IMG/VR virus record: IMGVR_UViG_3300012928_000001
Location: 1 to 64,000 of that record
Source: a virus
DNA length: 64,000 nt
Reading direction: 5' to 3' (one strand)
The position numbers and the translations under genes were made by a program. The number at the start of each line of letters is the position of its first letter. Positions within the stretch are counted from its first letter, which is position 1. Positions 3,190-40,639 of the stretch are shown in pieces. The notes under the pieces were generated by a model, which ran no database searches, was not told the origin of the DNA, and saw only the letters and a program-made list of their open reading frames with translations.

Positions 3190-3218
3190 CACCCACGGGG
3201 AGGGCCCAGCCCTCCCCC

Positions 3219-3277: not shown

Positions 3278-3291
3278 AAAGGAGAGAGACC

Positions 3292-3498
3292 ATGTCCCGC
3301 AACCGCAATCACGATCAGTCTTCCCCCCGAGCCCGAGCAAAGACCCGCGCCATGATGCGCAAGGCGTGGCGAGCCCGCCGCGAGGCCAAGCGAGCCCGCG
3401 CGGCCGGCCACAACTTCGACGCGGCGCAAGCCGAGATCCGGGCCGCCAAGCTCGACCCCGACGGCGCCCCGACCTTGCTCCCCGCTCCCGCGATCTGA
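3292..3498 (+). CDS. Small basic hypothetical protein downstream of hammerhead A
   Basis: AAGGAG upstream of ATG; 68 aa, Arg/Ala-rich. Confidence 0.6.
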   Translation: MSRNRNHDQSSPRARAKTRAMMRKAWRARREAKRARAAGHNFDAAQAEIRAAKLDPDGAPTLLPAPAI

Positions 3499-3543
3499 CA
3501 CGATCGTCTGTGACTCGCACCCGTGTTTGGCCTACGGTAACGC

Positions 3544-4461: not shown

Positions 4462-4946
4462 GCTTGCGAGGGAAGCTCGAAGCGCTTGCGCGGGTGCTCC
4501 CCCGTCGACAGGTACACGTCGACGGGGAGCTTTACCTTGACCGCTATTACCTGTGGGGCCGGCCGCCCAATCAGGATGGGTGGGATGGGTTGATCGTCCC
4601 GCGCTTGCGCTTGCTCCCGACGGCCTACCTGCATCACTTCCATCGCCCCGACGGTGATCGGCTTTGCCACAATCACCCGTGGCACGCGATGGGCCGAGTC
4701 CTCGCCGGCCACTACACAGAGCAGCGCTATGCAGGGCATCCCGCCGATGGTGTGCCTACTGGGTTGATCAAGCGCGAGCCGGGAGAGTGGTACGGGATCA
4801 CGCCGGACACCTTCCATCGCCTCGCCCGAGTCAGCGAGGGCGGCGCGTGGACCCTGTTCATCATCATCGGGGACAAGCTCCAGTCGTGGGGCTACTGGGA
4901 TCCGGTCGGAAAGTTGTTCATCCCGTGGCGCGAGCGCTGCCACTGA
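4458..4946 (+). CDS. Cupin-like phage protein
   Basis: YLDRYYL...YLHHFHRPD...HNHPW...GHYTE...FHRL...WTLF...WGYW, a His-rich cupin-type pattern. Confidence 0.6.
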   Translation: MSLRGKLEALARVLPRRQVHVDGELYLDRYYLWGRPPNQDGWDGLIVPRLRLLPTAYLHHFHRPDGDRLCHNHPWHAMGRVLAGHYTEQRYAGHPADGVPTGLIKREPGEWYGITPDTFHRLARVSEGGAWTLFIIIGDKLQSWGYWDPVGKLFIPWRERCH

Positions 4947-4970
4947 GCCCCAGGGCGCACACCATCTCGG

Positions 4971-5007
4971 AAGATCGGTCAAGAGAAATCTTGACCGATC
5001 TTTTTTT
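4971..5007 (+). terminator. Intrinsic terminator fused to class-1 copy 2
   Basis: Perfect 14-bp stem AAGATCGGTCAAGA/TCTTGACCGATCTT, GAAA loop, T-tract. A related hairpin lies at 1896-1930 before copy 1. Confidence 0.8.
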
Positions 5008-5106
5008 CGAAAAATCGCCAGATACCGCTTGCACAGCCTGCACAACTTCGACTATATACGTCTGGCGGGGGCGAGAGAGACCGCCCCCGAGAAAGCAGAC
5101 AAGATC

Positions 5107-5400
5107 ATGGCCCGCAAGTTCACCAAAGACCCCGCCCTTACCGCTCGCGTCACCGGCACCATCAAGCTCCAGGCCATCGGAGAGACCAGCGCCATCCCCG
5201 CGGGTGACCTCAAGCCGGGTGACGTCACGATCTGGAACTTTGGCGGACAGAACACCGTGGTGCGCATCGACCGCGAGACCGCGAAAACCGTGTGGATCAC
5301 GTTCTCCTATTACTGCAACGTCAACAAAGAGGTTGTGGTGTCGAGCAAGCCGCGCCGCCTCAAAAAGGATCGTCTGGTCGGATTCAAGACCTGGCACTGA
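5107..5400 (+). CDS. Early array hypothetical protein (SH3/KOW-like beta pattern)
   Basis: ATG follows class-1 copy 2; AGDLKPGDV motif. Confidence 0.7.
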   Translation: MARKFTKDPALTARVTGTIKLQAIGETSAIPAGDLKPGDVTIWNFGGQNTVVRIDRETAKTVWITFSYYCNVNKEVVVSSKPRRLKKDRLVGFKTWH

Positions 5401-5423
5401 TCGAAGGGAAGGGACAAAAGACC

Positions 5424-5690
5424 ATGACCGCCAACACCGCCAAGATCATTAAGCGCCACTCCCGCAAGATCCTCGACGCCCTCACCGGCTGGCGCGAGGA
5501 TGCGGCCCGGCATGGCTACCCTAGCACCGGGATCGACCCGGAGCGGCGCGCGGTGATCGTGCTCGTGCGCGATGGTCGCCGCTACAGCGCGATCCCCCAA
5601 TACCGCACTGAGCCCGTGGGTGCTGAGATCGACTGCACTACTGGCCTCATGGCCGACTATGACTGGGCGGTGGTCGCGCAAGTCGCTTGA
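5424..5690 (+). CDS. Early array hypothetical protein
   Basis: Purine-rich leader before ATG 5424; stop abuts class-1 copy 3. Confidence 0.6.
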   Translation: MTANTAKIIKRHSRKILDALTGWREDAARHGYPSTGIDPERRAVIVLVRDGRRYSAIPQYRTEPVGAEIDCTTGLMADYDWAVVAQVA

Positions 5691-5800
5691 TCAAGATTTT
5701 TTCGAAAAATCGCCAGATACCACTTGCACAGCCTGCACAACTTAGACTAGAGTACTTTCACCGGGCGAGAGAGACCGCCCGCGAGAAAGCAGACAGAACG

Positions 5801-6583
5801 ATGACCACCGAGACTTTCATCCGCGCCAACCCCACCCGCCTCCCCTCCGGTTACTGGGGCGTCAAAGGCACCGGCCGTATTCCCGCGCTGAATGAGCCTG
5901 TTCGCGTCCAGACGCGTGGTGGAAAGACCTGGTACGCGCAGATCACGAGCAAGCCGCAGGTCACGGCTTGGGGCTGGCGCGCGAGCAGCGAGAGCATGAG
6001 CAAGGCCGACGCGCAGTCTTACGTGCGCAAGCTCCGCAACCGCCCCGTGATCCCCATGACTTGGCCCGAGGACCCCACGCCCGAGCCCGCTCCCGAGCGC
6101 AAGCCGGACGCGAACGGCTTCTATCCTGCGCCCCCGGCCAACGGTCGACCCAAGTGGGAGCCCATGACCCCCGCCGTGCACGGTGAGCCCGTGTGGTCCG
6201 GCGAGTGGTCCACGCTCACGCTCAACCGCTCCGGCAAGTTTGATCTGTCGGTGTTCGGGGACACGCACTGCGGGCTTGCCGACCGAGACGGTAACGTCCC
6301 CTGCACGTACGCGCTCACGCTCGTTTGCGAGGCTAGCGGCCTGGATAAGGACGGTTTCCTGGTCGAGCAGGTCGGGATCGATCGGTTCTTTAACGAGGAT
6401 CTCGGCCCCGTGGGTGTGAGCTGCGAACTGCTCGCCCTGAACTGTGCGCGCGAGCTGTACCGCAAGATTCGCCGCGAAAACCCCCACGTCAAGATCAAGG
6501 GCCTGCGTCTCACCATCGCCCCGACCCCCGAGGGTATGCAGGGCGCCGCGGACATGACTTTCGCGTGGGGGGAGGGGCTCTAG
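5801..6583 (+). CDS. Two-domain protein; C-terminal half possibly QueD/PTPS-like T-fold
   Basis: ATG follows copy 3; HCG...YALTL...LDKDGFLVE...SCELLA...LRLTI pattern resembles 6-pyruvoyl-tetrahydropterin synthase spacing but lacks the HGH motif. Confidence 0.4.
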   Translation: MTTETFIRANPTRLPSGYWGVKGTGRIPALNEPVRVQTRGGKTWYAQITSKPQVTAWGWRASSESMSKADAQSYVRKLRNRPVIPMTWPEDPTPEPAPERKPDANGFYPAPPANGRPKWEPMTPAVHGEPVWSGEWSTLTLNRSGKFDLSVFGDTHCGLADRDGNVPCTYALTLVCEASGLDKDGFLVEQVGIDRFFNEDLGPVGVSCELLALNCARELYRKIRRENPHVKIKGLRLTIAPTPEGMQGAADMTFAWGEGL

Positions 6584-6749
6584 CCCGTCCAGGGCTCGCG
6601 CCCGTTCTGCGCCAATCTGAGGGCCCCAAACGGGGCCCTCATTTTTTTTCAAAAATCTGGCGTTTACCCCTTGCACAACCTGCACAACTTAGACTAGAGT
6701 ACTTTCACCGGGGGCGAGAGAGACTGCTCCCAAGAAAGCAGACAAGATC

Positions 6750-6959
6750 ATGACCGCCGCCGACATCGCCATCAAGCTTACCCGCGAGCAACACATCATC
6801 CTCCGTGACTGCACCCACGGCCACACCCGCGAGCTTTCCCGCCTCCCCGCGCCCCTGATCGGGCTGCGCGATTACAAGCTGGCCCTGACTGACCGCGCGT
6901 TCGCGGTCGCCGCGTGCGGCGCGTTCCTGCATGAGGACATTTACTCGGTGGGGAACTGA
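6750..6959 (+). CDS. Early array hypothetical protein
   Basis: ATG follows class-1 copy 4. Confidence 0.7.
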   Translation: MTAADIAIKLTREQHIILRDCTHGHTRELSRLPAPLIGLRDYKLALTDRAFAVAACGAFLHEDIYSVGN

Positions 6960-6961
6960 GC

Positions 6962-7210
6962 ATGGCATCCGAGCACCCGATCACCGAAATCAGCGCCAAG
7001 TGCGTCTCTAACTCCCGCGTCAGGATCACCGCCAACCTCGACGGCCACGCCGAAATCACGATCGAGCTCCGCCGCGATGGCGCGCAGGTGATCGCAGAAT
7101 CGGCCAAGTGGCACAATGGGCAGGGCTTCGCTAGCACCGTGCATGTCTCGCGCGTCCCCCGCAACGTTATGCGCGTCTCGAAGAATCTGGCACGCGATCT
7201 GCTCGCCTAA
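6962..7210 (+). CDS. Early array hypothetical protein
   Basis: Coupled to the upstream ORF; stop abuts copy 5. Confidence 0.6.
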   Translation: MASEHPITEISAKCVSNSRVRITANLDGHAEITIELRRDGAQVIAESAKWHNGQGFASTVHVSRVPRNVMRVSKNLARDLLA

Positions 7211-7316
7211 ACTTTTTTCGAAAAATCGCCAGATTGGGGTTGCACAGCCTGCACAACTTAGACTAGAGTACTTTCACCGGGGGCGAGAGAGTCCCCGCCA
7301 GAAAGCAGACAAGACC

Positions 7317-7517
7317 ATGCCCACCGAGATCACCTACTTCACCTGCGTTCTCTCCTTCCCCACCAACCCCGACCATCGCACCGCGTGGCACCCCTACTAC
7401 GCCACCGGCAAGCGCTCGCGCCTCACCCGCGGCGCCTTCGACACCGAGCAGGAAGCCCACGATTGGGCGAGCGAGCAGGGGATCCACCCGAGCACCTACA
7501 CTGTCCAGGGCTACTGA
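7317..7517 (+). CDS. Early array hypothetical protein
   Basis: ATG follows copy 5; GAFDTEQEAHDWA motif typical of small phage proteins. Confidence 0.7.
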   Translation: MPTEITYFTCVLSFPTNPDHRTAWHPYYATGKRSRLTRGAFDTEQEAHDWASEQGIHPSTYTVQGY

Positions 7518-7545
7518 GCCCGCTCCGGGGCCCACGAGGGCCCCA

Positions 7546-7601
7546 CCCGTCCGACCCCTACCGCTGGGGCGCTGATGATGGCCCAGCAAGGCCGAAACGG
7601 G
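7546..7601 (+). ncRNA. Hammerhead ribozyme, type III (copy B)
   Basis: CCCGUC^ / stem I CG(A)CCCC:GGGGCG / CUGAUGA(U) / stem II GGCC:GGCC / GAAA / stem III CCCGU:ACGGG; predicted cleavage after C7551. Confidence 0.88.
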
Positions 7602-7616
7602 AAAGCAGGCAAGATC

Positions 7617-7823
7617 ATGACCACCACCGAGACTGTAATCGTCGTCACCTACGCGAATGGAGCGTCCAGCGCGTACCGCTCCCCCGAGACCATGCGCGAG
7701 TGGGCGGCCGACGCGGACCCGATCAACGCCCAAGCGTTCCGCACGATGGCCGACATGATTGATAGCGCCGCGTTGTCGGGCTCCGCGGGGGGCTTTCGCT
7801 TCCGCGTGATGCGCGTGCGCTAA
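7617..7823 (+). CDS. Early array hypothetical protein downstream of hammerhead B
   Basis: Leader GAAAGCAGGCAAGATC-ATG is a variant of the class-1 translation-initiation region. Confidence 0.7.
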   Translation: MTTTETVIVVTYANGASSAYRSPETMREWAADADPINAQAFRTMADMIDSAALSGSAGGFRFRVMRVR

Positions 7824-7941
7824 GCTCGCCAAAAGTTTTTTCGAAAATCTGGCGATCTGGGGTTGCACAACCTGCACAACTTAGACTAGAGTACTTTCAC
7901 CGGGGGCGAGAGAGACCGCTCCCAAGAAAGCAGACAGACAA

Positions 7942-8124
7942 ATGCAGATCTTCACCATCTCCGGCGTTACCTACACTTTCGAGATCCTCGGCGCCCTTGC
8001 CAACGCGCGCATTTTGGCCGCCATCGAGATCCGCGCCGAGCGCGGCGAGGACATGAGCTACTTTGACGACCGCATCGCGGCCGTCCAGGCCAAGGCCACG
8101 ATCCGCCCCCGCCGCGCGAACTGA
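7942..8124 (+). CDS. Early array hypothetical protein
   Basis: ATG follows copy 6; followed by hairpin terminator 8131-8162. Confidence 0.7.
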   Translation: MQIFTISGVTYTFEILGALANARILAAIEIRAERGEDMSYFDDRIAAVQAKATIRPRRAN

Positions 8125-8260
8125 GAGATCTAGGGCCCCAGGGATGGGGTCCTAACTTTTTTCAAAAAATCGCCAGATAGCACTTGCACAGCCTGCACAA
8201 CTTCGAGTAATACTTACTCACCGGGCGAGAGAGACCGCCCCCAAGAAAGCAGACAAGATC

Positions 8261-8437
8261 ATGACCATCGACAAGTCCAAGCCCCTCACCACCGGCACCC
8301 GTCACTCCATCGTTTGCATGATTCGCGCCGTTGGCGGCTGCAAAAAGCGCCGCGGACAGGATGTCTGGGACACGGTTGATGGTGATGTCCTCGAAATCCG
8401 CGCACACGGCGACACTCTTGCGCTTTTCGCTCGCTGA
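8261..8437 (+). CDS. 58-aa early array protein (not in the supplied ORF track)
   Basis: ATG follows copy 7; MTIDKSKPLTTGTRHSIVCMIRAVGG...LALFAR, stop TGA 8435-8437. Confidence 0.65.
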   Translation: MTIDKSKPLTTGTRHSIVCMIRAVGGCKKRRGQDVWDTVDGDVLEIRAHGDTLALFAR

Positions 8438-8466
8438 TCACGCACCCCCACCGGAAAGCCAAGATC

Positions 8467-8748
8467 ATGACCACCGCGACGCCCATCACCATCGAGACCC
8501 GCCCACTCGCCTACTTTCGCGCCCACGCGGAGCCCCACCCCGCACGGGTCGACCTGAACAGCTTCCGGGCCGGCTGGATCCTGTGGTGTTACCTGCGCGG
8601 TGACGAGGACTGCAAGAATGGCGCGGAGCTCATGGGCTACCAATACGCGGCCGAGTACAACGACAACGGGGGCGGCGCTCGCCCGAGTGCGGAAGACGCG
8701 CAAGATCTTGACGCGAGCGATATCAAGCAAGCGATCGAGTGGCTCTAA
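8467..8748 (+). CDS. Early array hypothetical protein
   Basis: Partial leader GAAAGCCAAGATC-ATG; stop abuts copy 8. Confidence 0.7.
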   Translation: MTTATPITIETRPLAYFRAHAEPHPARVDLNSFRAGWILWCYLRGDEDCKNGAELMGYQYAAEYNDNGGGARPSAEDAQDLDASDIKQAIEWL

Positions 8749-8855
8749 CTTTTTTCGAAAAATCGCCAGATTGCTCTTGCACAACCTGCACAACTTCGAG
8801 TAAGGTTCTTTCACCGGGGGCGAGAGAGACCGCTCCCAAGAAAGCAGACAAGATC

Positions 8856-9188
8856 ATGGCCCTTCCCAAGACCTCCCCCGCCCTCCCCGCCCTGACCCTC
8901 GCCATCCTCGCCGCCGATGGCCGCGAGCTCCGCGAGGCCATGTTCCCGAGCGCCAAGACCGCGGGCGACGCGCTCAAGGCGCTGGGCGCCAAGCGCCACG
9001 GCCGCTCCCGCGTCTTTGACGTCGAGTACGCCGGGCGCACCATGACCGTTCAGATCCACAAGATGGGGCACAACGCGTTCCGCGTTTGGCGCATCGACCA
9101 GCTTCAGGCTTTCTGGGCCGAGACCGTGAGCGAGAGTGTCCTTTCGGACTACAGCGAGGGCCGCGCCGTGATCGAGTACATCGGCTAG
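8856..9188 (+). CDS. Early array hypothetical protein
   Basis: ATG follows copy 8; stop abuts copy 9. Confidence 0.7.
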   Translation: MALPKTSPALPALTLAILAADGRELREAMFPSAKTAGDALKALGAKRHGRSRVFDVEYAGRTMTVQIHKMGHNAFRVWRIDQLQAFWAETVSESVLSDYSEGRAVIEYIG

Positions 9189-9295
9189 AACTTTTTTCGA
9201 AAAATCGCCAGATACCACTTGCACAACTCGCACAACTTCGAGTAGAGTACTTTCACCGGGCGAGAGAGACCGCCCGCAAGAAAGCAGACAAGATC

Positions 9296-9538
9296 ATGAC
9301 CGCCAAGACCGCTCCCGCCCTCGTCGTCCCCGCCCTCTACGATGTCAAGACCCGCCTGATCCTGGTCCGCGTGAGCGACACGCGCAGCGAGCTTCGCATC
9401 GCTACCAAGCGCGGCGCGGTGCGCCCTTTGGCCAAAAACTCGTTCATCATGGACGCTGCACACGAAAACGCGCTCGCTTACGCCAAAACTCTGCACGCGA
9501 CCCCGGGCGAGCTGTTCGGCTGCGCCATCTACGCCTGA
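9296..9538 (+). CDS. Early array hypothetical protein
   Basis: ATG follows copy 9; stop abuts copy 10. Confidence 0.7.
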   Translation: MTAKTAPALVVPALYDVKTRLILVRVSDTRSELRIATKRGAVRPLAKNSFIMDAAHENALAYAKTLHATPGELFGCAIYA

Positions 9539-9646
9539 ACTTTTTTCGAAAAATCGCCAGATACCACTTGCACAACCTGCACAACTTCGAGTAATACTTA
9601 CTCACCGGGGGCGAGAGAGACCGCTCCCAAGAAAGCAGACAAGATC

Positions 9647-10102
9647 ATGACCACCGAGATCGTTACCACCCCCGCCCTCATCGACATCACCAACATGAGC
9701 GATGCCGCCCTCGACGCCCTACTGGGCCTGGAGCCGGCGCGAGAGCTCTACCGCGTCGAGTGCGGGGAGATGGAGCGCGCCCACGCCAAGTGCCTGTCTG
9801 AGCTCGCCAAGGGCGAGATCGGGGCCAAGGCCCTCCGCGCCGCGGTGGCCCGCGGAGCCCACCCCGTGGAGCTCCAAGACTGGGCGGTCAACGTCCTGCG
9901 CGAGGGCGGGATGCGCCGGGTCGGCCCCGCGCACGTCGCGCTCATGGACAAGGAGCTGCGCGTCGCCCGCTCCCTCAAGATCGAGGCCGACGCCGAGGGC
10001 CTGGAGACCTACCTGCGCGCCCGCCGCGCCAGCCACGGGCTCCCCCGTCTCACCCGCGCCGGCCGTGCGCTCATGTTCGCGCTCATCGCTTACAAGCTCT
10101 AA
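9647..10102 (+). CDS. Early array hypothetical protein
   Basis: ATG follows copy 10. Confidence 0.7.
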   Translation: MTTEIVTTPALIDITNMSDAALDALLGLEPARELYRVECGEMERAHAKCLSELAKGEIGAKALRAAVARGAHPVELQDWAVNVLREGGMRRVGPAHVALMDKELRVARSLKIEADAEGLETYLRARRASHGLPRLTRAGRALMFALIAYKL

Positions 10103-10242
10103 ACCCGGTCCGGGGCCCGATCTAGGGCCCCTCGCAGATTTTTCGAAAAAAGCTGGCGATTTCACTTGCACAACCTGCACAACTTCGGATAAGGTCTCTT
10201 CACCGGGCGAGAGAGACCGCCCGCAAGAAAGCAGACAGCACG

Positions 10243-10701
10243 ATGACCGCCAAGCCCGCCCCCGCCCCCACCTTCACCGACGACGTCACCACCCGCGCCA
10301 CCCTGCTCACCGGCAAGATCGGCGACGACTGCACGGTCCGTTACGATTTCGCCGAGTACTGGATCATGGTCGATGGCGACCATGTCAAGACCGACGGCAC
10401 GCGCGATGCGCTGCTCAACTCGCTTTCCAAGGCGACCACCCTGGCCGAGGCGCAGGAAGACGCGCGCAATGTTCGCAGGGTCCTCTCGGGCCGCGCCGGT
10501 TACGACCTGCGCAGCATCCGCCTGGTCCGTAAAGTCGGTTTCGTGGTCATTGCGTACGGTTTCGAGCAGGATCTGAGCGAGGACGGCGAAGGGGCGATCA
10601 TGGCCACTGAAAAGGTGCTCGCTGGGGAGCGCCCCACGCATGAGCCGCGCTCGCGCGACTTTTTCCGGGAGTTCATCGCGGCCCGCGCTGCCGCGGCTTG
10701 A
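10243..10701 (+). CDS. Early array hypothetical protein
   Basis: ATG follows copy 11; followed by terminator TAGGGCCCC-TGAC-GGGGCCCTA-ACTTTTTT. Confidence 0.7.
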   Translation: MTAKPAPAPTFTDDVTTRATLLTGKIGDDCTVRYDFAEYWIMVDGDHVKTDGTRDALLNSLSKATTLAEAQEDARNVRRVLSGRAGYDLRSIRLVRKVGFVVIAYGFEQDLSEDGEGAIMATEKVLAGERPTHEPRSRDFFREFIAARAAAA

Positions 10702-10841
10702 GGGAAGATCTAGGGCCCCTGACGGGGCCCTAACTTTTTTCTCAAAAATCGCCAGATACCCCTTGCACAACCTGCACAACTTCGAGTAGAGTACTTTCAC
10801 CGGGGGCGAGAGAGACCGCTCCCAAGAAAGCAGACAGACCG

Positions 10842-11231
10842 ATGCAGACCTGGAAATCCGACCACTCCGACGTCACTCCCATCGTTTACCTCATGAACAT
10901 TCTCGACACGTTCATGTCCCTGCTCGCCGTGGACGGCGAGCGCGAGGCCTACGGCGCGCTTTTCCGCTCCCGCTTCGACGGCGCCGAGATCCCGTTTTGC
11001 GAGGAGAGCGCCCGCGAGCTCGCCCTCGCGGAGATCGCGCCCCTGCTTTACGACTCCGCCGTCGACGGTGACCGCGCGCGGCGCGAGGGCTTCGACTTCC
11101 TCTTCGACGCGGAGCCCGCCGACTACTACCCCGGGCGCTACATGCGCGGCACCCCGCTGGACGCCTACGTGTGCCAGATGCTCGATCTCCCCTACCGCTC
11201 CGCCTTTCCCATGATCTTGATCGCCTGCTAA
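10842..11231 (+). CDS. Acidic early array hypothetical protein
   Basis: ATG follows copy 12; stop abuts copy 13. Confidence 0.7.
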   Translation: MQTWKSDHSDVTPIVYLMNILDTFMSLLAVDGEREAYGALFRSRFDGAEIPFCEESARELALAEIAPLLYDSAVDGDRARREGFDFLFDAEPADYYPGRYMRGTPLDAYVCQMLDLPYRSAFPMILIAC

Positions 11232-11335
11232 CTTTTTTCGAAAAATCGCCAGATACCCCTTGCACAACCTGCACAACTTCGACTAGAGTACTTTCACCGG
11301 GGGCGAGAGAGTCCCCGCCGAAAGCAGACAAGATC

Positions 11336-11626
11336 ATGGCCCGCAAGACCCGCAAGCCCGCCCGCGCCTACAAGCCCGCCCGCAAGACCCGCAAGCCCGC
11401 CTCCCGGCGCAAGAGCGGAAAGCAGATCATCGCGGACGCGTGGAACGCGGTTGAGTGCGCGATGGACTGGACCATGGCGTGCCTCGATGACATGCCGGAG
11501 CTGCTGGCCGAGGCCGAGGCCGAGGAAGAAGAGGCGCGCCGCGCGTACAAGCTCGCGGTGGCCACGCACGGCGCCAACATCCCCCCGGCCCTGCGCGCCG
11601 CGGCGATCGCCAAGTTCGCGGCATGA
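11336..11626 (+). CDS. Early array protein with basic repeat N-terminus and acidic helix
   Basis: ATG follows copy 13; (ARKTRKPA)x2 then EAEAEEEE. Confidence 0.7.
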   Translation: MARKTRKPARAYKPARKTRKPASRRKSGKQIIADAWNAVECAMDWTMACLDDMPELLAEAEAEEEEARRAYKLAVATHGANIPPALRAAAIAKFAA

Positions 11627-11737
11627 TCAACTTTTTTCGAAAAATCGCCAGATTGCTCTTGCACAACCTGCACAACTTCGACTAGAGTACTTTCACCGGG
11701 GGCGAGAGAGACCGCCTCCAAGAAAGCAGACAAGATC

Positions 11738-12064
11738 ATGACCATCGAGATCACCGTCACCACGACCGCCCCCGCCCCCCCCCGCGTCACCGCCAACCCC
11801 GAGTGGTCCAGCATCGGCGCCACCCCCGACGCCGAGAACACCTGCCCCGCGGAGCGCGCCCGTCCCGAGCGCAAGGGCCGCCTGGAGATCGTGTCTCTGA
11901 GCAACGACTCGGTTTGGTCCCTGACGGATTGCACCTTGGATCAGGCCCGGCACATCCTGGATCAGGTTCAGGCCACCGGCGACAAGGATGCTGCGCTCAT
12001 GGTGGGCGGCGCGTGGGACGTTCGCCCCGCGAACTACCTGATCACCCTGTACCGCTGCGCCTGA
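11738..12064 (+). CDS. Early array hypothetical protein
   Basis: ATG follows copy 14. Confidence 0.7.
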   Translation: MTIEITVTTTAPAPPRVTANPEWSSIGATPDAENTCPAERARPERKGRLEIVSLSNDSVWSLTDCTLDQARHILDQVQATGDKDAALMVGGAWDVRPANYLITLYRCA

Positions 12065-12164
12065 GATTTTTTTTTTATAAATCGCTTGCACAACCTGCAC
12101 AACTTCGAGTATATAGATCTGGCGGGGGCGAGAGAGACCGCCCCCGCCGAAAGCAGACAAGATC

Positions 12165-12473
12165 ATGCGCTACTCCCAGACCGCCCCCACCAAATCCGAT
12201 CTACAAGCGATCCGCGCGCTTGGAAAGTCCCTCAACCTTTCAAGCCCGCTACGCGTGCGCAAAAACGCCGGATCTCTGCGTTACAGCGCCACGGTCAAGT
12301 GCCTCGATATCTCGACTGGCGAGGCTATCGCCCTCCTTGAAGGACTGAGCGCGCTGGGTTTTGACAGTGGCGTCCCGGGGGGCAAGTTTGATCTGGCGCA
12401 CACCATTGCGCAGACGAAAACGCATGGGTTTACCACCGTCAATCTACAGGTGTCGCGCTGGGTGCGCGGGTAA
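12165..12473 (+). CDS. Early array hypothetical protein
   Basis: ATG follows copy 15. Confidence 0.7.
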   Translation: MRYSQTAPTKSDLQAIRALGKSLNLSSPLRVRKNAGSLRYSATVKCLDISTGEAIALLEGLSALGFDSGVPGGKFDLAHTIAQTKTHGFTTVNLQVSRWVRG

Positions 12474-12974: not shown

Positions 12975-14268
12975 TACTCACCCGAGCTTCGCTATCGTGG
13001 CGGTCCGCGTGACCGCGTCGGAAGCATCAATCATCCAAGACTTACTGGCCCAACGTGGCAAGGATTTTGAACCGCTCGCGCGCAAGTTCGCCGCTGCAAT
13101 GACGCAGTGCATTTTCACTCGCGCCATGGATCGGGACTATCACAACGGACTCGACGAGCGCCGCAAATGGCTTGTCCGTGTCCCGCTGGACAGCAACCGC
13201 AAGCCCGGTGATTTCGTGAACGTCTCGCGCCGAGACTCCACTACATCATCGGTCAAGCTCGGTCCCATGATCCGCAAGGGCCACCGCTACGCCTACCACA
13301 CCACGGACCGCAAGCGAGCCGAGGGCGAGCCCAAGGCCGAACGGAAATACCGCTACTCGGAAGTGTGACTCACGCCCCCATTCGGCCTACAGAGAGATAC
13401 CTCCAATGACCGCTCACCACTACACGCCCGATCCCTCGATCCTCATCATCACCGGCCCGCAGTTCCGAAAGCAGACACGCGCCGAGCAGGTCGCCCAGTA
13501 TGACGCACAGTTGCGATTCATCATGGAGGCCATCGCCAACACTCCGACCACGCCGACAAAGCCCACCGACGTGATCGAGATCCGCGTGCTACTCACGCGG
13601 AAGCTCTTCACCGCCGTGCATGACGTGCTGAATCGGAACGGGTGGGAAGTCCACGAGGGCGAGCCCAACCCCGCGGGTCACCGCGGTGACGGTACATGGC
13701 CGATCATGCTGCGCCCGTCGATCGTGCGCGGGCCCAGCACGCGCACACAGCCCGTAGACACCGTCGAGAGCCCGCCGGCCGGCTGGGCGCCGCCCCCCGA
13801 CTGGATCCGCACTCGGGACGAAGCGCGCGCCCGTCTCGTGGCCGCCACGGAGGGCGAGGAATGAGCGGCGCGTGTCAGGCCTACTACGCCCCGATCACCA
13901 TCGGACCGCGTACCGGCGTGGTCATCGTGAGCGCCCCCGACAAGCCCACCGCGCGGCGCATGATCGCGGAGCACGTGCGGGATAACGTGCCCATTGAATC
14001 GCGCTACATCTCAGGCAAAGGTCTCTACATGGGGCCCAGCATGAACGCGATCCAACCCGTCAACGGCGACCCCGGTAAAGTCGTCTACTTCGATTCGGGG
14101 GTGTCCTGATGAGCCTCGCCGACGCCAAAGTGGGGGACCAGCTTGTCTGGGTTGCTGGGTTCCGCCGCCATCGCACAATCGTCACGGTCACTCGCGTCAC
14201 GGCCACACAGATCATCGTCGGGACGCGCAACAGGGTAGACCGGATCCGCAAGCGCAACGGTAGCGTCA

Positions 14269-25894: not shown

Positions 25895-28800
25895 GTGTCG
25901 CGGTCACCACCTGATCCAATCGGACAAGCGCTCGGGTTCATGGCCGTGTGGAACGGCCTTTTGTTCTCGTGGCGCCCGCAGCCCATGAACAAGTGGGCGG
26001 AGTTGGTGGCTGCTCCGCCCCTGCCATTGGACATCGATTTCACAACGCAACAGTGGGACCGGTGGGTGCATAATCACACCACTGGGATCTACATCGCGTT
26101 GACGGTGGTCGACACCATGCACCTGTGTACCGAGAAAATCGACTACGGCAGGTACGGCCCCAACGTCTGGCGATTGTCTGATAGGGGAATCGAGTTGGTA
26201 CGGGCCAACAATCTAGACGTGATTGCGGCGATCAAGCTGGACGGACGAGTCGGTAACAAGCCCCACTATGTTTGGGATTCGCGCTTGCAGTCATACGAGC
26301 TTTCACGGAGTGAACCGAAAGATGGATGATCACGGATACGAATGCGGAACGTGTGGCTACGTGCCCACCTACGAAGAGCTCCACAACGGCACGTGCCCGC
26401 AGTGCGAGCTGAATCGACAGATTGATCGCGCACGCGAGGAGACCGAGAATGGAGACTGAGCCCGACGAGGAAATCGTTACGGTCGCCATGCCGGCGAGCA
26501 TGGCCCGACTCGTGGCGTCGCTACTACTAGCATTCGACCTGTACGAGGCGGCGGAGGGCTTCGCAGAAATGCAACGGCCGTGCATCTTCGTGAGCGCAGA
26601 CGTTTCGCCAGACCCGGATACAGAGTGTAGGGAATGGTTTATTCGCGCTCCCAAGAATACATTCGCGGTCGGTGACTTGGTCATGGTCCGTCGACGGGAT
26701 GGAAGCAACCCGGTGATCGTGCAGCTCACCGGCCTAGTGCGCACGCGTCGGCTGTACGAATGGTACACATTCGAGAACGTCTGAGATGGCAAACACAACC
26801 GAAGTCAAGTGCATCGAGACCCTTACGCACAACGACGCTCTATTTGATCGTGAAGTGCTGCGCAAGCTGTCGGGATTCCAGCTGACCGCTACTGCGCTCA
26901 CGGCCTGCATGGATGAAGAGTTCCTAGACGCATTCTCCGCCGATGCTGTGATCGATGCTTTGGGCAACCTGCGCGTCCTCGGTCTGGTCCGACGTCGCGG
27001 TGACGAATACGTCGTGACGAAAAAGGGCAAGGCGGTGCTCGAGGTTGTGAACACGCTCTGTGCGGTGCGAAGCGCCGCCGAGACCTTGCCTGGGGGCTCG
27101 CTGTGAACGTGGGTCGCGGCGATCCTCCGGGGCTTTGGCGTCGGATCAGCAGTACCCCGGTCGCGCTTGGGTTGCTGACTCCCGCTGATCGGTATTTCAC
27201 ATTTCCACGGACCGGTGAGCTACCTGCTCACGCCGGGGAGCTGCTAAAGTGCGCCCGAGATCCGTGGGATTGCGTTATCTGGCGTCGCGAGGAGAGTGGG
27301 GAGCTGCTAAAGTGCGCCCGAGATCCGTGGGATTGCGTTATCTGGCGTCGCGAGGAGAGTGGGGCCTATAACGTTTTGGTCTTCTTTGGCGACACGGAGC
27401 TCGTTCCTAGGTCGGCGCTGCGTTTGGCTCAGTGCGCCGAGCCTGATGTTTACGAGCTCACCGACGAAGCGCGGGCCGACGCCCTCGCGCAAAACTTCGA
27501 TGTCCTCGCCGCGGTTTTTCTTTCAGATGGCCTGTGACTCGCACCGCCGACCGGGCTACAGTAGATTGTCGCCGGTCGAGCAAACTGCGACCGTGGCCGA
27601 CCTACCTCCTAGGCTTGGGTTGGGTTCCAGCGGCCACGTAAGTCTCGGATTTCGATCCTCCTTCCAACACGACGCGTCCGAGACTAGAACGCTCCCGGGA
27701 ATGGTCCCGGGAGCGTTCACCTTTTGAGGGGACCAAAACAAATGAACGCGTACACCATCCAAGAAATGATCTCATCTGCCGAAGTGCTGCAAGGGCTCAT
27801 GGTCACGCCTGGACGTGTCCTGCATTTGTGCACAGCCGGAATGGTCTCTGGCGAGCTTTGGGATTGTGCCCCGGTTCAACTTCGTCTCAACGACAGAACG
27901 TCTCTCGGTCAGGCCAGCCAAGCCATCGGGGGTGCTCCCTCCAAATGGACCTACATGGGGCCGGTGAGCGCGACTGTACTCGATGTGCTCGGCTTTTCTC
28001 CCGAGTCTGCGCCTCCCGGATTTGTCGCGGTGGAAAGCACGGTCCACGATATCGGACGCACCCGATTTCAGGGCCCGCTGTATGTGCTCACGGATGCTGG
28101 CCGACAACGTGCGCAAGAGCAGAACTTCGATACACTCGCGGCCGTGTTCCTAGCTTAGGCCTGTGACCCGCACGCGCTTTCGGCCTACAGTAAAGCGCAT
28201 GCGGACCATCATCCAAAAGCACACGATCATCGAGGTTCCCGGCAGGCCCTACGATCCGCACACGCTCAACGCGGAGATGATCGAGCGGTTCGCCGCGGAT
28301 CACAGCGACGACCCTGCACCGCTCTGGAAGCTGCGCATGATCGCCGGGTTCCCCATCGTGCTGGAGTGGCTCGCTAGGGTGCTCTCGCCAATCGTGGGCG
28401 CGTCGTGGCTGTACTTGATGGCGTATCCGCTGCTCCCGTGGTGGCTCGCGGGGGGCATGTTCGCGTTCGCAGCATGGCCGACCCTCACGGCGCACGTCGG
28501 GCTCATGGGCGAGCTTCGATCTCTCAAGACCATTCGCTACAGGACCCCTGAGGATGACGAAAAGTACGATCTATGACCGTCTTTCAGCGCTGTTTTCGGA
28601 GGTTCACGATATCACCGCTGAAAGCGTAGACCTGTCGCACCCTTCTCCACGGGTTAGCGACCAACAACTCGTGCTCGGGATGCTGGCTTTGCCTGATACG
28701 GTGCTGCTAATGCTCGACACGCCGAAGCTGGACACCTGCCCTATTCGGCAAGAGATCGAGCCCACGTCGATGAGAGGCCCTTGGGGTTACGTGGACATCG

Positions 28801-30234
28801 CTAGGATTCCGCGCACGCTCGCGGAGCGCCTTGTCGATAGCGGGTACTTTCGAGGCAAAGAAGGCTTCGGGCGCTACCGGTTGCGCGCTAGCGTGCGCAG
28901 GTATTGTCGCCAGTATAACTACGATGTCCTCGCGTCGATCCGCTTGCAGGACCACCCCGATGGATGAGAAGAGCATCGCCCTCGGGCTACTCGCTAATCC
29001 GGCGCATCAGATTTTTGCGGGGTTCAGTTGGTGGCTCATCGCAAACGTCGAAACGAATACCACAGTTATGCGCATGTCCGATAGCCTATTTAAGGTACTT
29101 GGCGCCGACGGTTGGCTTGAGCGTGACGAGGAATACCGCGAAGTTTGGCGGCTCGCGCCGGAGCGGCGGGCCGAGCTCGTCGAGCAAAATCTTGACGTAC
29201 TGGCCACAGTTCACCTGATGCAGGATGTCGATTAGTGGATCATCTCAAATACCGGGGGTTCATGATAGCGCTTGGCCTACTAGCCAAGGGTGGGGGTGGG
29301 CGTATACGGTGCTCCGGTTCCGGCGATGTCGTGATTCTTCAACCGGCCGAAACGGGGGTCCACTGCCGTGCGCTCGCTCTCGCTACACGTGAAGTGTTTG
29401 CCGATCTGTGCGATAGCGGTTGCTTGTCTGAACTCGTCGCTAAACCTGGGGTGTACGTAATCACGGAGCATGGTAAGAAGCTGGCGCGCGAGCTCAATGC
29501 TGACATCGTCGCATTGCTCGCCAAGGAGTCGGCCGGCCAAACTATGCTCGAGTGCGGCGGACGTGCTTGGCCGCCGGAGTCGGAGGATCCGCCGGAGCCG
29601 GATCCCGATTTTCGGTGATCGCCTGTGACTCCCTCCGCCGTTCGGCCTACAGTACATCGAGGGCGGCGCGGAACCTGTCTGCTCTGCGCTGACCTCACGG
29701 GGGTGAGAGTGTCTCTCTCTCTCTCTTTCTCTCACTGCCCAACCGAGGGCCCGGGACGCCCCTCCCGGGCCCTCACCTATTTGAGCCATGCACGATCTCA
29801 GCCCAGCCATGATTCAGCAGCTCTCAGTTGCCTTCGAAAAGCCGCCGCTTTTGGAGATAGGTACTGATTCAATCAAGGCATGGGAAAAGCTGGTCGAACT
29901 TGGCTACTTGCTCCCGATCTATGCCCCGGCAAAGTGGCCCGACGAGGAGTTTCTCGCGGTCGAGCTTTGCGAGGGCGGGGTGTGGGAAAATCATGTCCAG
30001 CTGCGCCCGACCATGCGGGCCGAACGGTGGCGCGATTCGATCGAGACGGTCGCCGCAATCGCCCTCATGGACCGCCAACCCTATCGCGTACTGGCAAAGA
30101 CCGCGCGCTTTGGGATTGACTACGGCACCGCGGAGATGCGGGCTCTCGCGCACGCGAGCGCATCGATCCGCGCGCAAATCGAGATGACCCATGAGAGGCT
30201 TCGCCAGTTCGCTGATCGGTGGGGGAAGCTGTGA
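25895..30234 (+). CDS. Cluster of winged-helix-like paralogs (25895-26329, 26786-27106, 27103-27537, 27742-28158, 28554-28967, 28960-29235, 29235-29618, 29788-30234) with interspersed ORFs
   Basis: Mostly Y/W-x-[LIV]-[TS]-x-x-[GA] followed by N-[FLYA]-D-[VTI]-[LIV]-A; 26786 and 29788 have the ET/NT-type helix. Confidence 0.6.
27235..27360 (+). repeat. Exact 63-bp in-frame tandem duplication
   Basis: 27235-27297 equals 27298-27360; bounded by GGGG microhomology; duplicates GELLKCARDPWDCVIWRREES. Confidence 0.95.
27567..27726 (+). ncRNA. Candidate sRNA 1 (anti-Shine-Dalgarno loops)
   Basis: Class-2 promoter at 27533, no credible ORF, stems CGTGGCCG/CGGCCACG and AGTCTCGGA/TCCGAGACT, 14-bp terminator stem + ACCTTTTG. 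Confidence 0.65.
29659..29783 (+). ncRNA. Candidate sRNA 2 (antisense to class-1 early leaders)
   Basis: Class-2 promoter at 29624, three hairpins, last one GAGGGCCCGGGA/TCCCGGGCCCTC + ACCTATTTG; loop regions contain CTGTCTGCT and GTCTCTCTC. Confidence 0.7.
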
Positions 30235-32645
30235 CTCGCGCCTGCCCTCGGCCTACAGTAGGCCGTGAGCATGTCCCCCACAAAGCCTGACCATCTCGCG
30301 GTCTTCCGGTCGAGCCACGCAAGCGTGCGCCGAAAATACTACGCTGTCGATCAAGGCGTGGGAGAGCTCCCCCATGTCTGCCACGACCACCCCGTGACGG
30401 GAGAGCGCCGCATCACGGAGAGCCTCGAATCGCGCGAGTTGGCCTACATCGTGTTGCATGGCTCCGCCCGAAAAACTCTGGCCCCCAAAGCGCGCGAGCG
30501 GTTGACCCTGCGCGCGCGGGCGGTCGAGCTCTGCGGCATCGAGCACACCGTGCGCACCGCGGGCGGATGGATCACGACCACGATCGTTTTCGCCGATGGC
30601 AAGTTCGAATCCGCGGAAGCCGAGTACTTCCGTGAGCAAGCTCCGAATCAACACAGTGAACAAACGGTCGTGTCATGATCAAGCCTGAGCCTCCCAGCTT
30701 TACGTACCCGCTGACTCCCGAGCACGCGCAGTCAATCGCGCGCTTTGTCCTGCACAGCTTCGAGCGAGCAACCCTGCATCCGCGTCTGGTCTCGATATTC
30801 ACCGACGGGCTCGTCGGCGCCGGAGATCTCGCCGAGATCCGCGAGCGCTTGCTAGAGCTCATGGTGGACAACATCGATCTCATCGTCACGGCTAACGGCG
30901 CGACGCTTTCCCCCGGGTCTCTCGTCAACATCAAGAAGCACCTGCGGAAAGTCCTGCGGGCCCGTGCGAGCAAAATCGATGAGGGCTTTGTGCACGATCT
31001 TCGAGTCTTGCACTGATAGCTGTGACCCGCATCGCTGCACGGCCTACAGTAGGACACCATGAGCAAGTCTCAGTTCACCTACACACTCCGCGGACGCAAG
31101 TTCCGGCGCCTGGACCCCCCAGCCATCATGGCCAAAGTCGACGGGCGCACGTGGCCGCGAAAGGTCCCGCTGCTCGACGCGGAGGACATCTACACCGGCG
31201 CCTACGCGTCCCCGGAGAACCCGGAGTGCCGGTGCCTGCTCGGCCACGCGCGGCACGTCTTCGGCGCCAAGACGGCGCGGCTCAAGGCCGTCAAGGTGGC
31301 GCTTGTCAACCGGATCCGCGACATCACCGACGCCGCCCCCGTCGGTGGAGAGTTCGGCACGATCACGAACTTCAACGACTGCTACGCGTCCCCGGGTCTC
31401 GTCGCTCGGGTGTGGAATGAGACCATGGCGGATCTCGGCTACACCCAGACCGTGAGCGCCTGATGTTCCGCAACGGCTACTACATCGTCGACAGTTCAGA
31501 CATCTACCGGCTGCCCACACTGCACACGGGCGAGTCGCTAGAGCTCGACCTCTCGAAGCCGCGCGGCTTCTACATGGTGCGCGTGATTCAGACTGCTCAG
31601 TTGCGCCACCGCAGTCAGCACGAATACCGCGAGTCCTACATCGGCGATGGCTGGGCTCAAGACTACCACGAGGTATACAGCTATCGCGCTACCATCATTC
31701 AGTCGTGCGATGAGAACACCTTCAAGGTGGCAGCAATGCTGCACCGCGGGGACAAGGTCTTTACCGACGTGCAGCTGCCCGCGGTGGTGTTCAAGCGCAA
31801 TGGGTCTCTCACGACATTTCGCACCGCCACCGGCCACGACATCATCCATCGGCATGGATTCTTGACGCCGGACCCGATCGCCCGGAGCATCGGATACTAC
31901 ATGATCAACATCGACGACATGGGAGAGATCTCCGTCGGCGACAAGATCAGCGAGACCGTGTTCATGGCTCATTACGCCATGTACCAAAAACTGGTCGGAC
32001 TCAGGATCCCTGACTACGATTCAGAGACACACAACCTCGAAGCGCGCGAGCGCATCGAGGCCGCGGGCAAGCGCAAGCAAAAGCCCGTGCAACCCAAGCC
32101 CCAACCCCAACCCCAACCCGAGATCAAAGACAACGCGGAGACCAAGCCCATGAGCAAGCCCACCGAGACCACCACCGACCCCAACCCCTTCGGCGACCTC
32201 AAAGACGCCTTCACCGAGGGCGCCAAGGATGGCACCGCCGCCGGCTTCGCCCAGATCGCCGGCAAGTCCCTGGCCCGCCACGCCGGCCGGAGCCTGGGCA
32301 TCCCCTCGACCTTCTTCGAGGGCCCGCTCGCCGCCGCCTTGCTCGGGGTCCTCGCGCCGCTCTTCATCATCGCGCTCGGGTGGCTCTGGGCCGACATGCC
32401 CCGCCGCGCGTGGCTGCTGGAGCAGAGCAACCGGGCCCTGCGCGGCGCCGCGACGCAGCACTCCGCCAAGCTCATCGAGTTCGCGGGCGGGTGGCTCGTC
32501 GAGCTCTTCTCGGCCGTCGACGGCGAGCCCCCGAAGGGCAAGGACAAGGGCAAGCCGGCCAGCGACGACATCGACGACACGGGCCCCCACGACTCGCCCA
32601 ACTGAACCTCTCGCGCAGCTCATGGATGAGCGCGAAGGCCATCGC

Positions 32646-38177: not shown

Positions 38178-38211
38178 CTGTGACTCGCAGGCCCGAGCGG
38201 CCTACAGTAGG

Positions 38212-38346
38212 GTGCCCGGATGGTCCGGGCATGCGCGCCGAGTTCAAAAAACTTTGGCGAGTGGAGGGCTCGGCGCGTTTCGGGGAGAAGTCGCAAGACA
38301 CCCAACGAACCCCGGAGATCGGTGGATCTCCGGGGTTCACCTTTTG
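38212..38346 (+). ncRNA. Candidate sRNA 3
   Basis: Class-2 promoter at 38179; stems GTGCCCGGA/TCCGGGCAT and GCGCGCCGAG/CTCGGCGCGT; terminator GAACCCCGGAGATC/GATCTCCGGGGTTC + ACCTTTTG. Confidence 0.6.
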
Positions 38347-38363
38347 TGTGCTACCATGATTAG

Positions 38364-39098
38364 ATGCGCTACGTAGGCGGCAAGACTCGGATCGCAAAAG
38401 AGCTCACCCCGTTCATCCTCGCGGCGGCCAAGAAAGCTGGCACATCGACGATCATCGAGCCCTTTTGCGGGGGCCTGGGCATGACGTGCGCACTCGTGAA
38501 AGCGTCGCCGTTCGTTCGCGTCGAGGCCAGTGATTACGCGCCCGGACTCATCACGCTCTATCGCAGCATCCGCGCCGGATGGAAGCCGCCCACCGATCTA
38601 GACAAAGCGCAGTGGGCGGAGCTCAAAAAGCGCGCGGGCGAAGATCACCGCCTAGTTGCATTCGCGGGGTTCGGGTGCAGCTTCAATGGGATCTACTTTT
38701 GCGGGTACGGGACCGAAAAGTTCCCCGGACAGGCCGCGCGAGGGCTCCGCAAAAAGCTCGACATCTGCACGCCCAAGCGGGTCACCCTAGAGTCCCGCAG
38801 CTATGCGGACATCGAGGTCACCGGCCCGTGTGTGATCTACTGCGATCCGCCCTATCGTGGCTGTGACCGCGACTCCTATCGCGCCCTGCACGGCACCCCA
38901 CACGAGCGATTCGACAGCGACGCGTTTTGGGAGTGGGCTCGCGTGTGCGCGGACAAGGGCGCGCATGTGCTCGTGAGCGAGTACGTAGGCCCGGACTGGG
39001 CGCGCGTACTGTGGCAGCGCGAGATCGTCTCCATGACCGGGAATCACAACGGTAAGGGCGACAAGGCAACCGAGAGGTTGTTTTACGTCGCGCCTTGA
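38364..39098 (+). CDS. DNA adenine methyltransferase (Dam/D12 class)
   Basis: MRYVGGK, EPFCGG, IYCDPPY, VLVSEY motifs. Confidence 0.9.
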   Translation: MRYVGGKTRIAKELTPFILAAAKKAGTSTIIEPFCGGLGMTCALVKASPFVRVEASDYAPGLITLYRSIRAGWKPPTDLDKAQWAELKKRAGEDHRLVAFAGFGCSFNGIYFCGYGTEKFPGQAARGLRKKLDICTPKRVTLESRSYADIEVTGPCVIYCDPPYRGCDRDSYRALHGTPHERFDSDAFWEWARVCADKGAHVLVSEYVGPDWARVLWQREIVSMTGNHNGKGDKATERLFYVAP

Positions 39099-40639
39099 TT
39101 CATGCTGGTCCCACCATGGGCGTACCAAAAGAGCAATTCGATGAATGGGTAGAGATCCCCTGGACGTTTCCCGAGGACACCATGTGTTGGGACGGCGACC
39201 GAGGTGGGACGGCGCCGCTACTCCTCGAAGACTATCAGCGGCAGTTCATGGACTGTCCGGCGAAGTATCGGGGTGTGAACAAATCGCGCCAGGTGGGGTA
39301 CTCATTCGTGTTCGCGGTCGAGTCGCTCACTCGGGCGATCATGGACCCCGGCCACACGTCGATGTTTGTCAGCTACAACCTCGACGACGCGCGAGAGAAG
39401 ATCACGATCATCCACAAGCTGCTCGATCTCAGCCCGGCGCTGCACGGTCTCGCTGATTTCGACGCGCTGAAAAATGACGTGAAAGTGAAGCCCAAGTGGG
39501 CGCGCAAGTGGTCGCTGATTCGGTCCCTCCCGTGCAGGCCCGTGCGAGGAAAGACCAAGGCTGATCTGTACCTCGACGAGATCGCCCACTATCAGGACGC
39601 AGAGCAGGTCTATCTCGGCAGCGCGCCCGCGACCGTGCGCTCCCTGACCGGTGGACAGATCACCGTTGCCAGTACCCCGAACGGGCGTGCTGGCATTTTC
39701 TGGGAGTGCATCGAGGGCCCGCGCTCGCGCCCGTACTGGAAGCAAAACGTCCCGTGGTGGGAGAGCCGGTATCTGTGCAGCGATGTCGAGCTCGCGCGCC
39801 GCGAGGCCGGGCTCATGACCACGGACGCGCGCATCTCAAAGTTCGCGCTGCCCAACCTCGTCGAGCTCTACGATGGCATGGCGCTGATCGACTTCCAGCA
39901 GGAATTCGAATGCGATTTTGTCGACGATGGATCGTCATACTTCCCGATGGACCTTCTCAACAAGAACGTCTGTCGGGATCGCCGATTGTGCCGAGATTTT
40001 GATGAGGTCTTGGAGAAGCGCCACCCCAAGGGCCAGCTTTTCGCCGGGGTCGACATCGGGCGATTCAAGGACACCACCGAAGTGGTGATTCTCGATCGGT
40101 GGCCTACGGAAAGCGCGTCAACGGGGTACGCCTATAGCCCGATGATGGTCATGACCATGGACCGCGTGAACACTCAGGAGCAAGGCGACCGGCTAGAGAC
40201 GCTCTTGAAGCATCCTGCGATTGAGCGGCTCTGGATCGACACTACTGGCATTGGTCTCGCCATCGGCGAGCGCCTGCGCAACGCCTTCCCTCGCAAGGTT
40301 GTGGGCGTCATGTTCACGACCCCGAGTAAAGAGCTCATGTGCGTGCTAGCTCGGCGCTCGTTCGAAAGGCTACTCGTCGACTTGCCTGATCCCGAGCACG
40401 AGGACAGCCGCGCCGGCCGTGAGGCCCGACTGTTCATCGATCACATCCACTCGATCAAGCGCCACGCGGGGACGGGCCGGCACGCTCGCTATGAGGCCGA
40501 GAGCACGACACACCACGGCGATCAGTTCTGGGCCTTTGCGCTCGTCATGCTGTGCGCCCATGAGGACCTGAAACCGCGACGCGATACGGCAACCCTGCGA
40601 GACGTTATCGACGTTTCGCTAGAGGCGAGTTTGGTATGA
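39095..40639 (+). CDS. terL: Terminase large subunit
   Basis: KSRQVGYS (Walker A), LYLDE (Walker B), ASTPNG, nuclease GVDIGRFKD, IDTTGIG, HGDQFWA. Start may be ATG 39116. Confidence 0.93.
   Translation: MIHAGPTMGVPKEQFDEWVEIPWTFPEDTMCWDGDRGGTAPLLLEDYQRQFMDCPAKYRGVNKSRQVGYSFVFAVESLTRAIMDPGHTSMFVSYNLDDAREKITIIHKLLDLSPALHGLADFDALKNDVKVKPKWARKWSLIRSLPCRPVRGKTKADLYLDEIAHYQDAEQVYLGSAPATVRSLTGGQITVASTPNGRAGIFWECIEGPRSRPYWKQNVPWWESRYLCSDVELARREAGLMTTDARISKFALPNLVELYDGMALIDFQQEFECDFVDDGSSYFPMDLLNKNVCRDRRLCRDFDEVLEKRHPKGQLFAGVDIGRFKDTTEVVILDRWPTESASTGYAYSPMMVMTMDRVNTQEQGDRLETLLKHPAIERLWIDTTGIGLAIGERLRNAFPRKVVGVMFTTPSKELMCVLARRSFERLLVDLPDPEHEDSRAGREARLFIDHIHSIKRHAGTGRHARYEAESTTHHGDQFWAFALVMLCAHEDLKPRRDTATLRDVIDVSLEASLV

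Follow-up and report, generated by a model that had tools for sequence, protein, structure and literature searches.

In the genome of an uncultured phage recovered from marine metagenomes (IMG/VR record IMGVR_UViG_3300012928_000001), we identified a short, apparently non-coding stretch at 29624-29783 that is predicted to give rise to a structured RNA with two loops complementary to the two conserved motifs of the leaders of 15 phage transcription units. The window analyzed here is the first 64 kb of the genome, a single contig of 105,163 bp, and the units in question, which we denote class-1 and presume to be early, are preceded by promoters distinct from the class-2 promoter that starts at 29624. 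The feature is real and non-random, well placed and statistically unusual. The best single explanation, which we put forward tentatively, at just short of an even chance, appears to be an antisense small RNA (sRNA) that possibly doubles as the 5' leader of the downstream gene beginning at 29788.

The class-1 promoter-leader cassettes, the predicted targets, form an array on the + strand at 1925-12170, and their leaders share the same layout: stem, AGAGAGAC loop, stem, AAGAA, AGCAGACA, ~5 nucleotides (nt) and ATG. Exact + strand copies of AGCAGACA number 16, one in each of the 15 leaders, at -13..-6 of the ATG (starting at 2016, 5094, 5788, 6737, 7304, 7929, 8248, 8843, 9283, 9634, 10230, 10829, 11323, 11725 and 12152), and one at 13470. 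The loop motif GAGAGAGAC is present in 14 exact + strand copies, 13 of them in the hairpin loops of the 15 leaders, 21 nt upstream of AGCAGACA, and one at 3282. On the minus strand, each motif has only one exact copy in the window, AGCAGACA at 29676-29683 and GAGAGAGAC at 29711-29719, both within the candidate RNA, whose loops 1 and 2 display TGTCTGCT and GTCTCTCTC, respectively. Site 1 (CUGUCUGCU, 29675-29683, + strand) is the complement of AGCAGACA(G), the match extending over 8 nt in 10 leaders and over 9 nt in the other 5; site 2 (GUCUCUCUC, 29711-29719, + strand) is the complement of the class-1 leader loop GAGAGAGAC and lies in a tract of at least four CT repeats (29713-29726). The two sites follow each other in the correct antiparallel order relative to the leader motifs. 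This loop complementarity was the central claim of a preliminary description of the locus, the coordinates and motifs of which all hold. The stems of the class-1 leaders vary both in length (5-10 bp) and in sequence while the loop is AGAGAGAC in 13 of the 15, which speaks for a loop that is displayed in RNA. In three of the four leaders tested, the probability that the loop is unpaired is 0.29-0.86, the loop of the variant leader 7304 being predicted to be paired; for AGCAGACA in the leaders, this probability is 0.01-0.35.

The minimum free energy (MFE) fold of 29655-29790 (136 nt) consists of three hairpins at -66 kcal/mol (z -4.48; none of 200 shuffles as good) and reproduces those originally proposed. 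Hairpin 1 (29659-29696) is built of the stems 29659-29662/29693-29696 and 29664-29672/29683-29691, which close the 10-nt loop ACCUGUCUGC at 29673-29682, and its MFE and centroid structures agree. Hairpin 2 (29699-29739) joins the stem GGGGUGAGAG / CUCUCAC.CC to a 19-nt pyrimidine (CU) loop at 29710-29728. Hairpin 3 with its tail (29745-29783, the hairpin itself being 29745-29774) has 12 bp, the loop CGCCCC and the tail ACCUAUUUG, and is terminator-like; all three are on the + strand. The CU tract is predicted to be highly accessible (probability of being unpaired 0.91-0.95), and the UGUCUGC of loop 1 has a value of 0.36. No Rfam family reaches the gathering score anywhere in the window, and at E<=5 the region 27500-29850 yields three chance-level sub-threshold matches, none inside the candidate.

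Two further genes retain one of the leader motifs each, as had been pointed out. On the + strand, GGAGAGAGAC at 3282-3290 occupies -12..-3 of the ATG at 3293 and could form 9 bp plus a G.U pair with the CU loop, and AGCAGGCA at 7604-7611 occupies -13..-6 of the ATG at 7617. The latter differs from the leader motif by an A-to-G change that lies opposite a U of the candidate sRNA and therefore gives a G.U pair, so that pairing with site 1 would be kept at the RNA level. Both genes had been described as lying behind hammerhead ribozymes, at 3224-3280 and 7548-7603; the cores, GUC...CUGA(C/U)GA...stem II...GAAAC, are indeed present at both places, and Rfam recognizes no hammerhead there, whether the gathering score or E<=1 is taken as the cutoff. 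Degenerate copies of both leader motifs are also present in the first class-2 gene that follows the array (13364-13480), with GAGAGATAC at the start site (13392) and an exact CGAAAGCAGACA at 13466-13477, 64 nt inside the ORF (open reading frame); this segment may be what is left of a 16th cassette.

An exhaustive exact-match scan of both strands of the genome against the single-stranded part and the loop of the leader showed that the 29624 locus is the only one outside the array with an ordered pair of complements of at least 8 nt each. The + strand of the genome has 14 tracts of at least four GA repeats, every one of them in the early array, and the tract of at least four CT repeats at 29713-29726 is the single occurrence in the 105 kb. 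In dinucleotide shuffles of 29657-29745, an ordered 9+9-nt pair arose with P = 0.0012 and an 8+8-nt pair with P = 0.013. We also considered the candidate as an inverted duplicate of the leader and rejected this origin because reverse-complement local alignment scored no better than shuffles.

Interaction energies were estimated with an RNAup-style windowed script that combines the duplex energy with the opening energies of both partners; plain whole-RNA duplex folding gave long artefactual hybrids and was dropped. For the 15 leaders, the accessibility-corrected energies of the two-site interaction range from -13 to -25 kcal/mol, with small opening penalties. When random + strand windows took the place of the candidate, the mean was -9.3 kcal/mol (sd 2.3, best -15.8, n=260) compared with -22.7 kcal/mol for the real RNA. 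In a scan for targets across 2,622 + strand windows of 80 nt, the top 7 were all class-1 leaders, and the non-leader windows averaged -6.4 kcal/mol (sd 3.2, best -20.4). In the converse scan for regulators of the conserved leader alone (4,195 windows, both strands; mean of three leaders; best 420 windows rescored), the candidate ranked first at -22.6 kcal/mol, versus -16.1 and -14.4 kcal/mol for the next-best partners, minus-strand windows at genome positions 79,4xx-79,7xx. The class-1 leaders are thus the best predicted targets of the candidate in the phage, and the shuffle P of the ordered complementarity is ~0.001. By computation, then, the candidate contains what is expected of an sRNA, an accessible seed complementary to the initiation region of its targets beyond chance.

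The promoter sets this unit apart from its class. The class-2 consensus, TGTGAC-N18-TAC[A/G]GT, is found in ~28 copies in the genome (counted by eye), nearly all of which are followed by ATG or GTG 5-8 nt past the -10 element (12 nt at 13364). With the start codon so near the -10 element, the class-2 units are expected to yield leaderless mRNAs (examples are at window positions 3509, 19657, 20585, 22078, 28162, 30230, 31021, 34124 and 42470), and, as read from this layout, the architecture of the genome is one of one promoter per gene and leaderless messages. The sequence AGATC ATG recurs ahead of start codons. The copy at 29624-29653 (TGTGAC-N18-TACAGT, + strand) matches the consensus and is among the very few of the ~28, and the clearest case, that have no start codon 5-12 nt past the -10 element; it ends in ...TACAGTACATCGAGG, and four other class-2 copies end in ...TAGATCGATG. 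At the leaderless position behind it there is no ATG, GTG or TTG and the next start codon comes only at 29788, so this is a promoter devoid of its leaderless start codon. By analogy with the leaderless class-2 genes, we place the probable start of transcription at ~A29660. The sole ORF spanning the stretch (29625-29867, 80 aa) begins upstream of this putative start site and overlaps the gene at 29788 out of frame; the consensus and the ORF check thus agree with the initial account of a class-2 promoter followed by ~125 nt with no credible ORF. A promoter of its own and the lack of a translated ORF are what one expects of an sRNA gene.

Under the antisense scenario, the promoter at 29624 would drive a ~125-nt non-coding RNA (~29660-29783), part of which would end at hairpin 3. 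The CU loop of hairpin 2 would nucleate a kissing interaction with the AGAGAGAC loop of the leader hairpin, after which the hairpin 1 loop UGUCUGCU would cover -13..-6 of the start codon, where the 30S subunit must sit, and the two contacts together would keep the ribosome off the class-1 mRNAs, which are without a Shine-Dalgarno sequence. Read-through of hairpin 3 would yield the mRNA of gene 29788, and the same stretch would then be both a 5' leader and the source of an sRNA. Where the RNA starts and ends, when it is made, and that it pairs in vivo and represses are all inferred. The more far-reaching version of this proposal, under which one dedicated sRNA of a lytic phage would silence the whole early programme by kissing and occlusion of the initiation region at the leader of the 15 otherwise unrelated cassettes and through one motif each at 3293 and 7617, and might be one of three sRNAs built on a common chassis, strikes us as possible but more doubtful.

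Several observations weigh against an antisense role. The class-2 promoters are assumed, from position and architecture, to fire later than the class-1 promoters. The locus is represented by one metagenomic genome without variants (none were found in either of the two marine-metagenome DNA runs). A single promoter facing 15 strong early promoters is unfavorable for a stoichiometric regulator, and a 9-bp helix cannot fully form within an 8-nt loop. Hairpin 3 is followed by a poor U-tract (ACCUAUUUG, offset and interrupted), which leaves a discrete 3' end uncertain, and gene 29788 begins 14 nt past this hairpin and needs read-through. When 30 nt of coding sequence were scanned along with one leader, the candidate came tenth of the 4,195 regulator windows because nine others scored higher by pairing with C-rich codons specific to that gene rather than with the leader. 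Given the CU composition, site 2 alone is non-significant (P 0.16-0.42). Finally, the 15 leaders are near-identical repeats and therefore amount to one independent target and one coincidence of 8-9 + 9 nt.

The strongest competitor, on balance unlikely as a complete account, is that the stretch acts solely in cis, as a 5' leader or attenuator, with a promoter-proximal terminator that gates the downstream gene or genes until an antitermination factor or another signal permits read-through, and with incidental complementarity to the class-1 leaders. The case for it comes from three paralogous units, at 27533-27730, 29624-29787 and 38179-38350, which share a class-2 promoter, a structured RNA of 130-160 nt, a perfect GC hairpin of 12-14 bp, the tail ACCU(U/A)UUUG and a promoterless gene within 14-26 nt; judging by this layout, a cis-acting leader or attenuator may be a serious rival to the sRNA or a second role of the same RNA. 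The first unit (27533-27730, + strand) comprises an RNA of ~160 nt with CCUCC loops, a 14-bp hairpin followed by ACCUUUUG, and gene 27742; it also contains a TTG-started ORF of 53 codons, apparently due to chance. The unit at 38179-38350 (+ strand), with an RNA of ~130 nt and a 14-bp hairpin followed by ACCUUUUG, directly precedes a methyltransferase-like gene (38364), the terminase (39095) and the structural module. The paralogues of hairpin 3 are at 27687-27726 and 38307-38346 (+ strand), and a similar, weaker hairpin with ACCUUUU stands at the end of a minus-strand gene at 85097, which makes it probable that the element terminates transcription. Gene 29788 (29788-30234, + strand; 148 aa, or 141 aa from the ATG at 29809) is an ORFan, the only match in a homologue search being itself, and, as it lacks a promoter of its own, it must be read through hairpin 3. 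A class-2-like site at 92647 was examined as a fourth unit and rejected because it lies inside a coding sequence.

This arrangement recalls the PR'-tR' region of phage lambda, where a promoter produces a short structured transcript, the 6S RNA, that ends at a promoter-proximal terminator, and the genes beyond require read-through. The phage units similarly have a promoter-proximal terminator ahead of promoterless genes, and the one at 38179 precedes packaging and structural genes. Unlike the lambda late unit, they contain no Q-binding element (QBE) or sigma-dependent pause element that we could identify; no -10-like pause element was noticed when the initially transcribed regions were read by eye, and the 20 window proteins scanned outside the packaging and structural genes gave no Pfam/PHROG hit (no dedicated search for Q was made). 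To our knowledge, lambda 6S RNA has no antisense target. A purely cis-acting element is disfavored by the lack of any motif common to the three leaders: their bodies are unrelated and share nothing beyond promoter and terminator, an arrangement that resembles separate RNA genes set on one chassis more than a shared cis element. No curated family of riboswitches or known cis-regulatory leaders matches the candidate, even at E<=5, and the search for nascent-leader folds gave no clear antiterminator structure in which the 5' arm of the terminator would find another partner. Such an element also leaves unexplained a complementarity that is the best in the genome, with P ~0.001. Nothing in the phage shows multi-copy complementarity to the sister units at 27533 and 38179.

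The two motifs could instead be DNA operators, bound by a phage protein, perhaps gp29788 or one of the many winged helix-turn-helix (wHTH) paralogues, that would form a roadblock at GAGAGAGAC and AGCAGACA a short way downstream of each early promoter and autoregulate through the inverted copies in its own leader. A protein that binds double-stranded DNA reads both orientations, and the motifs are suitably located, at +10..+45 relative to the early promoters and, for gene 29788, between its promoter and start codon. The structural leads from gp29788 to wHTH proteins of the PadR/MarR/HxlR type are weak, with TM (template modelling) scores of 0.43-0.52 and a model pLDDT (predicted local distance difference test) of 0.50, below the level of evidence. 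The gap between the motifs is 12 nt in the leaders versus 27 nt at 29624, a difference of ~1.5 helical turns, and their order is inverted; neither motif is palindromic or a clean repeat, and at both places inverted repeats frame the motifs into RNA loops, a feature that a DNA site does not need. We consider operators improbable.

That a low-complexity CU tract and one 8-9-mer were merely picked post hoc from the reading of 64 kb deserves consideration given how readily the parts arise separately. Site 2 alone appears in 16-42% of shuffles matched in composition, as shuffling retains CU richness, and for site 1 alone the expected figure is 2-8%. The + strand has 24 chance complements of at least 8 nt to the single-stranded part of the leader, and the targets are effectively one sequence. 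The joint, ordered occurrence nevertheless has P = 0.0012 even if the odd composition is granted, the CU tract is unique in 105 kb, and both sites fall in loops of a class-2 unit with no possible start codon behind its promoter; an accidental link between the candidate RNA and the leader module is very unlikely. Least probable of all is the reversed direction, whereby abundant early leaders would bind the 29624 leader and tune gene 29788 at the level of termination, stability or translation, making the leader a sensor of the early transcript load rather than a silencer: the complementarity statistics are identical for it, 15 promoters versus one would put the early leaders in excess, and gene 29788 depends on the 29624 leader, but hairpin 3 begins 30-70 nt downstream of the paired loops and the ATG lies a full 70-110 nt downstream of them, and no structural switch linking these elements was found.

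An antisense sRNA of the proposed kind would resemble several known regulators. OxyS of E. coli, a three-hairpin trans-acting sRNA, contacts two sites of fhlA through two loops, one of them at the ribosome-binding region, and blocks translation. The candidate likewise has two loops for two short target sites; OxyS, however, is a host stress sRNA with single-copy targets, whereas the predicted target here is a leader placed before 15 phage units, and one of the contacts is loop-loop, with a conserved leader hairpin. The c4 RNA of phages P1 and P7 (immI: c4-icd-ant), which acts in lysogenic immunity, contains two short complementary segments, one directed at the ribosome-binding site, and represses the very operon transcript from which it is cut. 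Full repression of ant requires the C4 antisense RNA (PMC8198154). Like c4 of P1, the candidate is a predicted two-segment antisense repressor of a phage; unlike c4, it has its own promoter, lies 17-27 kb from predicted targets that have promoters of their own, and belongs to an apparently lytic phage. We rejected membership in the c4-type antisense RNAs, as the candidate matches no Rfam family and its predicted targets lie far from it behind their own promoters. In phage T4, RegB cleaves GGAG in the ribosome-binding sites of early mRNAs and RegA is a translational repressor. The proposed shut-off would similarly act post-transcriptionally on many early mRNAs through a short element of the initiation region, but, in contrast to the proteins RegA and RegB, the effector would be a base-pairing RNA.

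Our literature searches retrieved no described equivalent of an sRNA that silences an early array with repeated leaders, in line with the initial impression that none is known. [quoted passage not shown] If the antisense scenario is valid, the phage would have an RNA-based temporal switch that parallels T4 RegA/RegB, with a single regulator and a repeated, modular target, under which any gene dropped into a cassette inherits early-off control. The system would then illustrate translation control in a setting where Shine-Dalgarno sequences are few and leaderless mRNAs many, and the promoter, leader and sRNA would make up a compact, portable regulatory kit. If the stretch is only a cis-acting leader, the three-unit family would still represent an attenuation layer of its own in a genome that is otherwise leaderless, with one promoter per gene.

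The genome has a GC content of ~64%, carries nearly all its genes on the + strand, and most of its genes are missing a Shine-Dalgarno sequence. Two marine-metagenome DNA runs contain the phage at 100-340x depth. Relatives are few: blastn against INPHARED detected none at the nucleotide level, pattern and protein scans of IMG/VR gave only chance matches or matches of ~30% identity, a pattern scan of JGI metagenomes gave 4 matches, all by chance, and the search of GTDB contigs gave a single match, at 31%. The portal protein is 35-37% identical to the portals of ~100-kb siphoviruses of Rhizobium and Rhodobacter, and the large terminase (gene 39095-40639) has relatives at 66-71% identity on long metagenomic contigs. 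More distant terminase relatives (~37% identity) are labelled Polyangiaceae, Haliangium or Myxococcales, labels that give a weak hint of a marine myxobacterium as the host. A perfect 64-bp tandem duplication is present within a gene at ~27239-27366, where the Logan contigs break and the depth rises to ~1.5x. At ~32061-32143, the summed contig depth rises ~40-fold (4,381 versus 104) in both metagenome runs, this short segment being common to far more abundant sequences in the samples.

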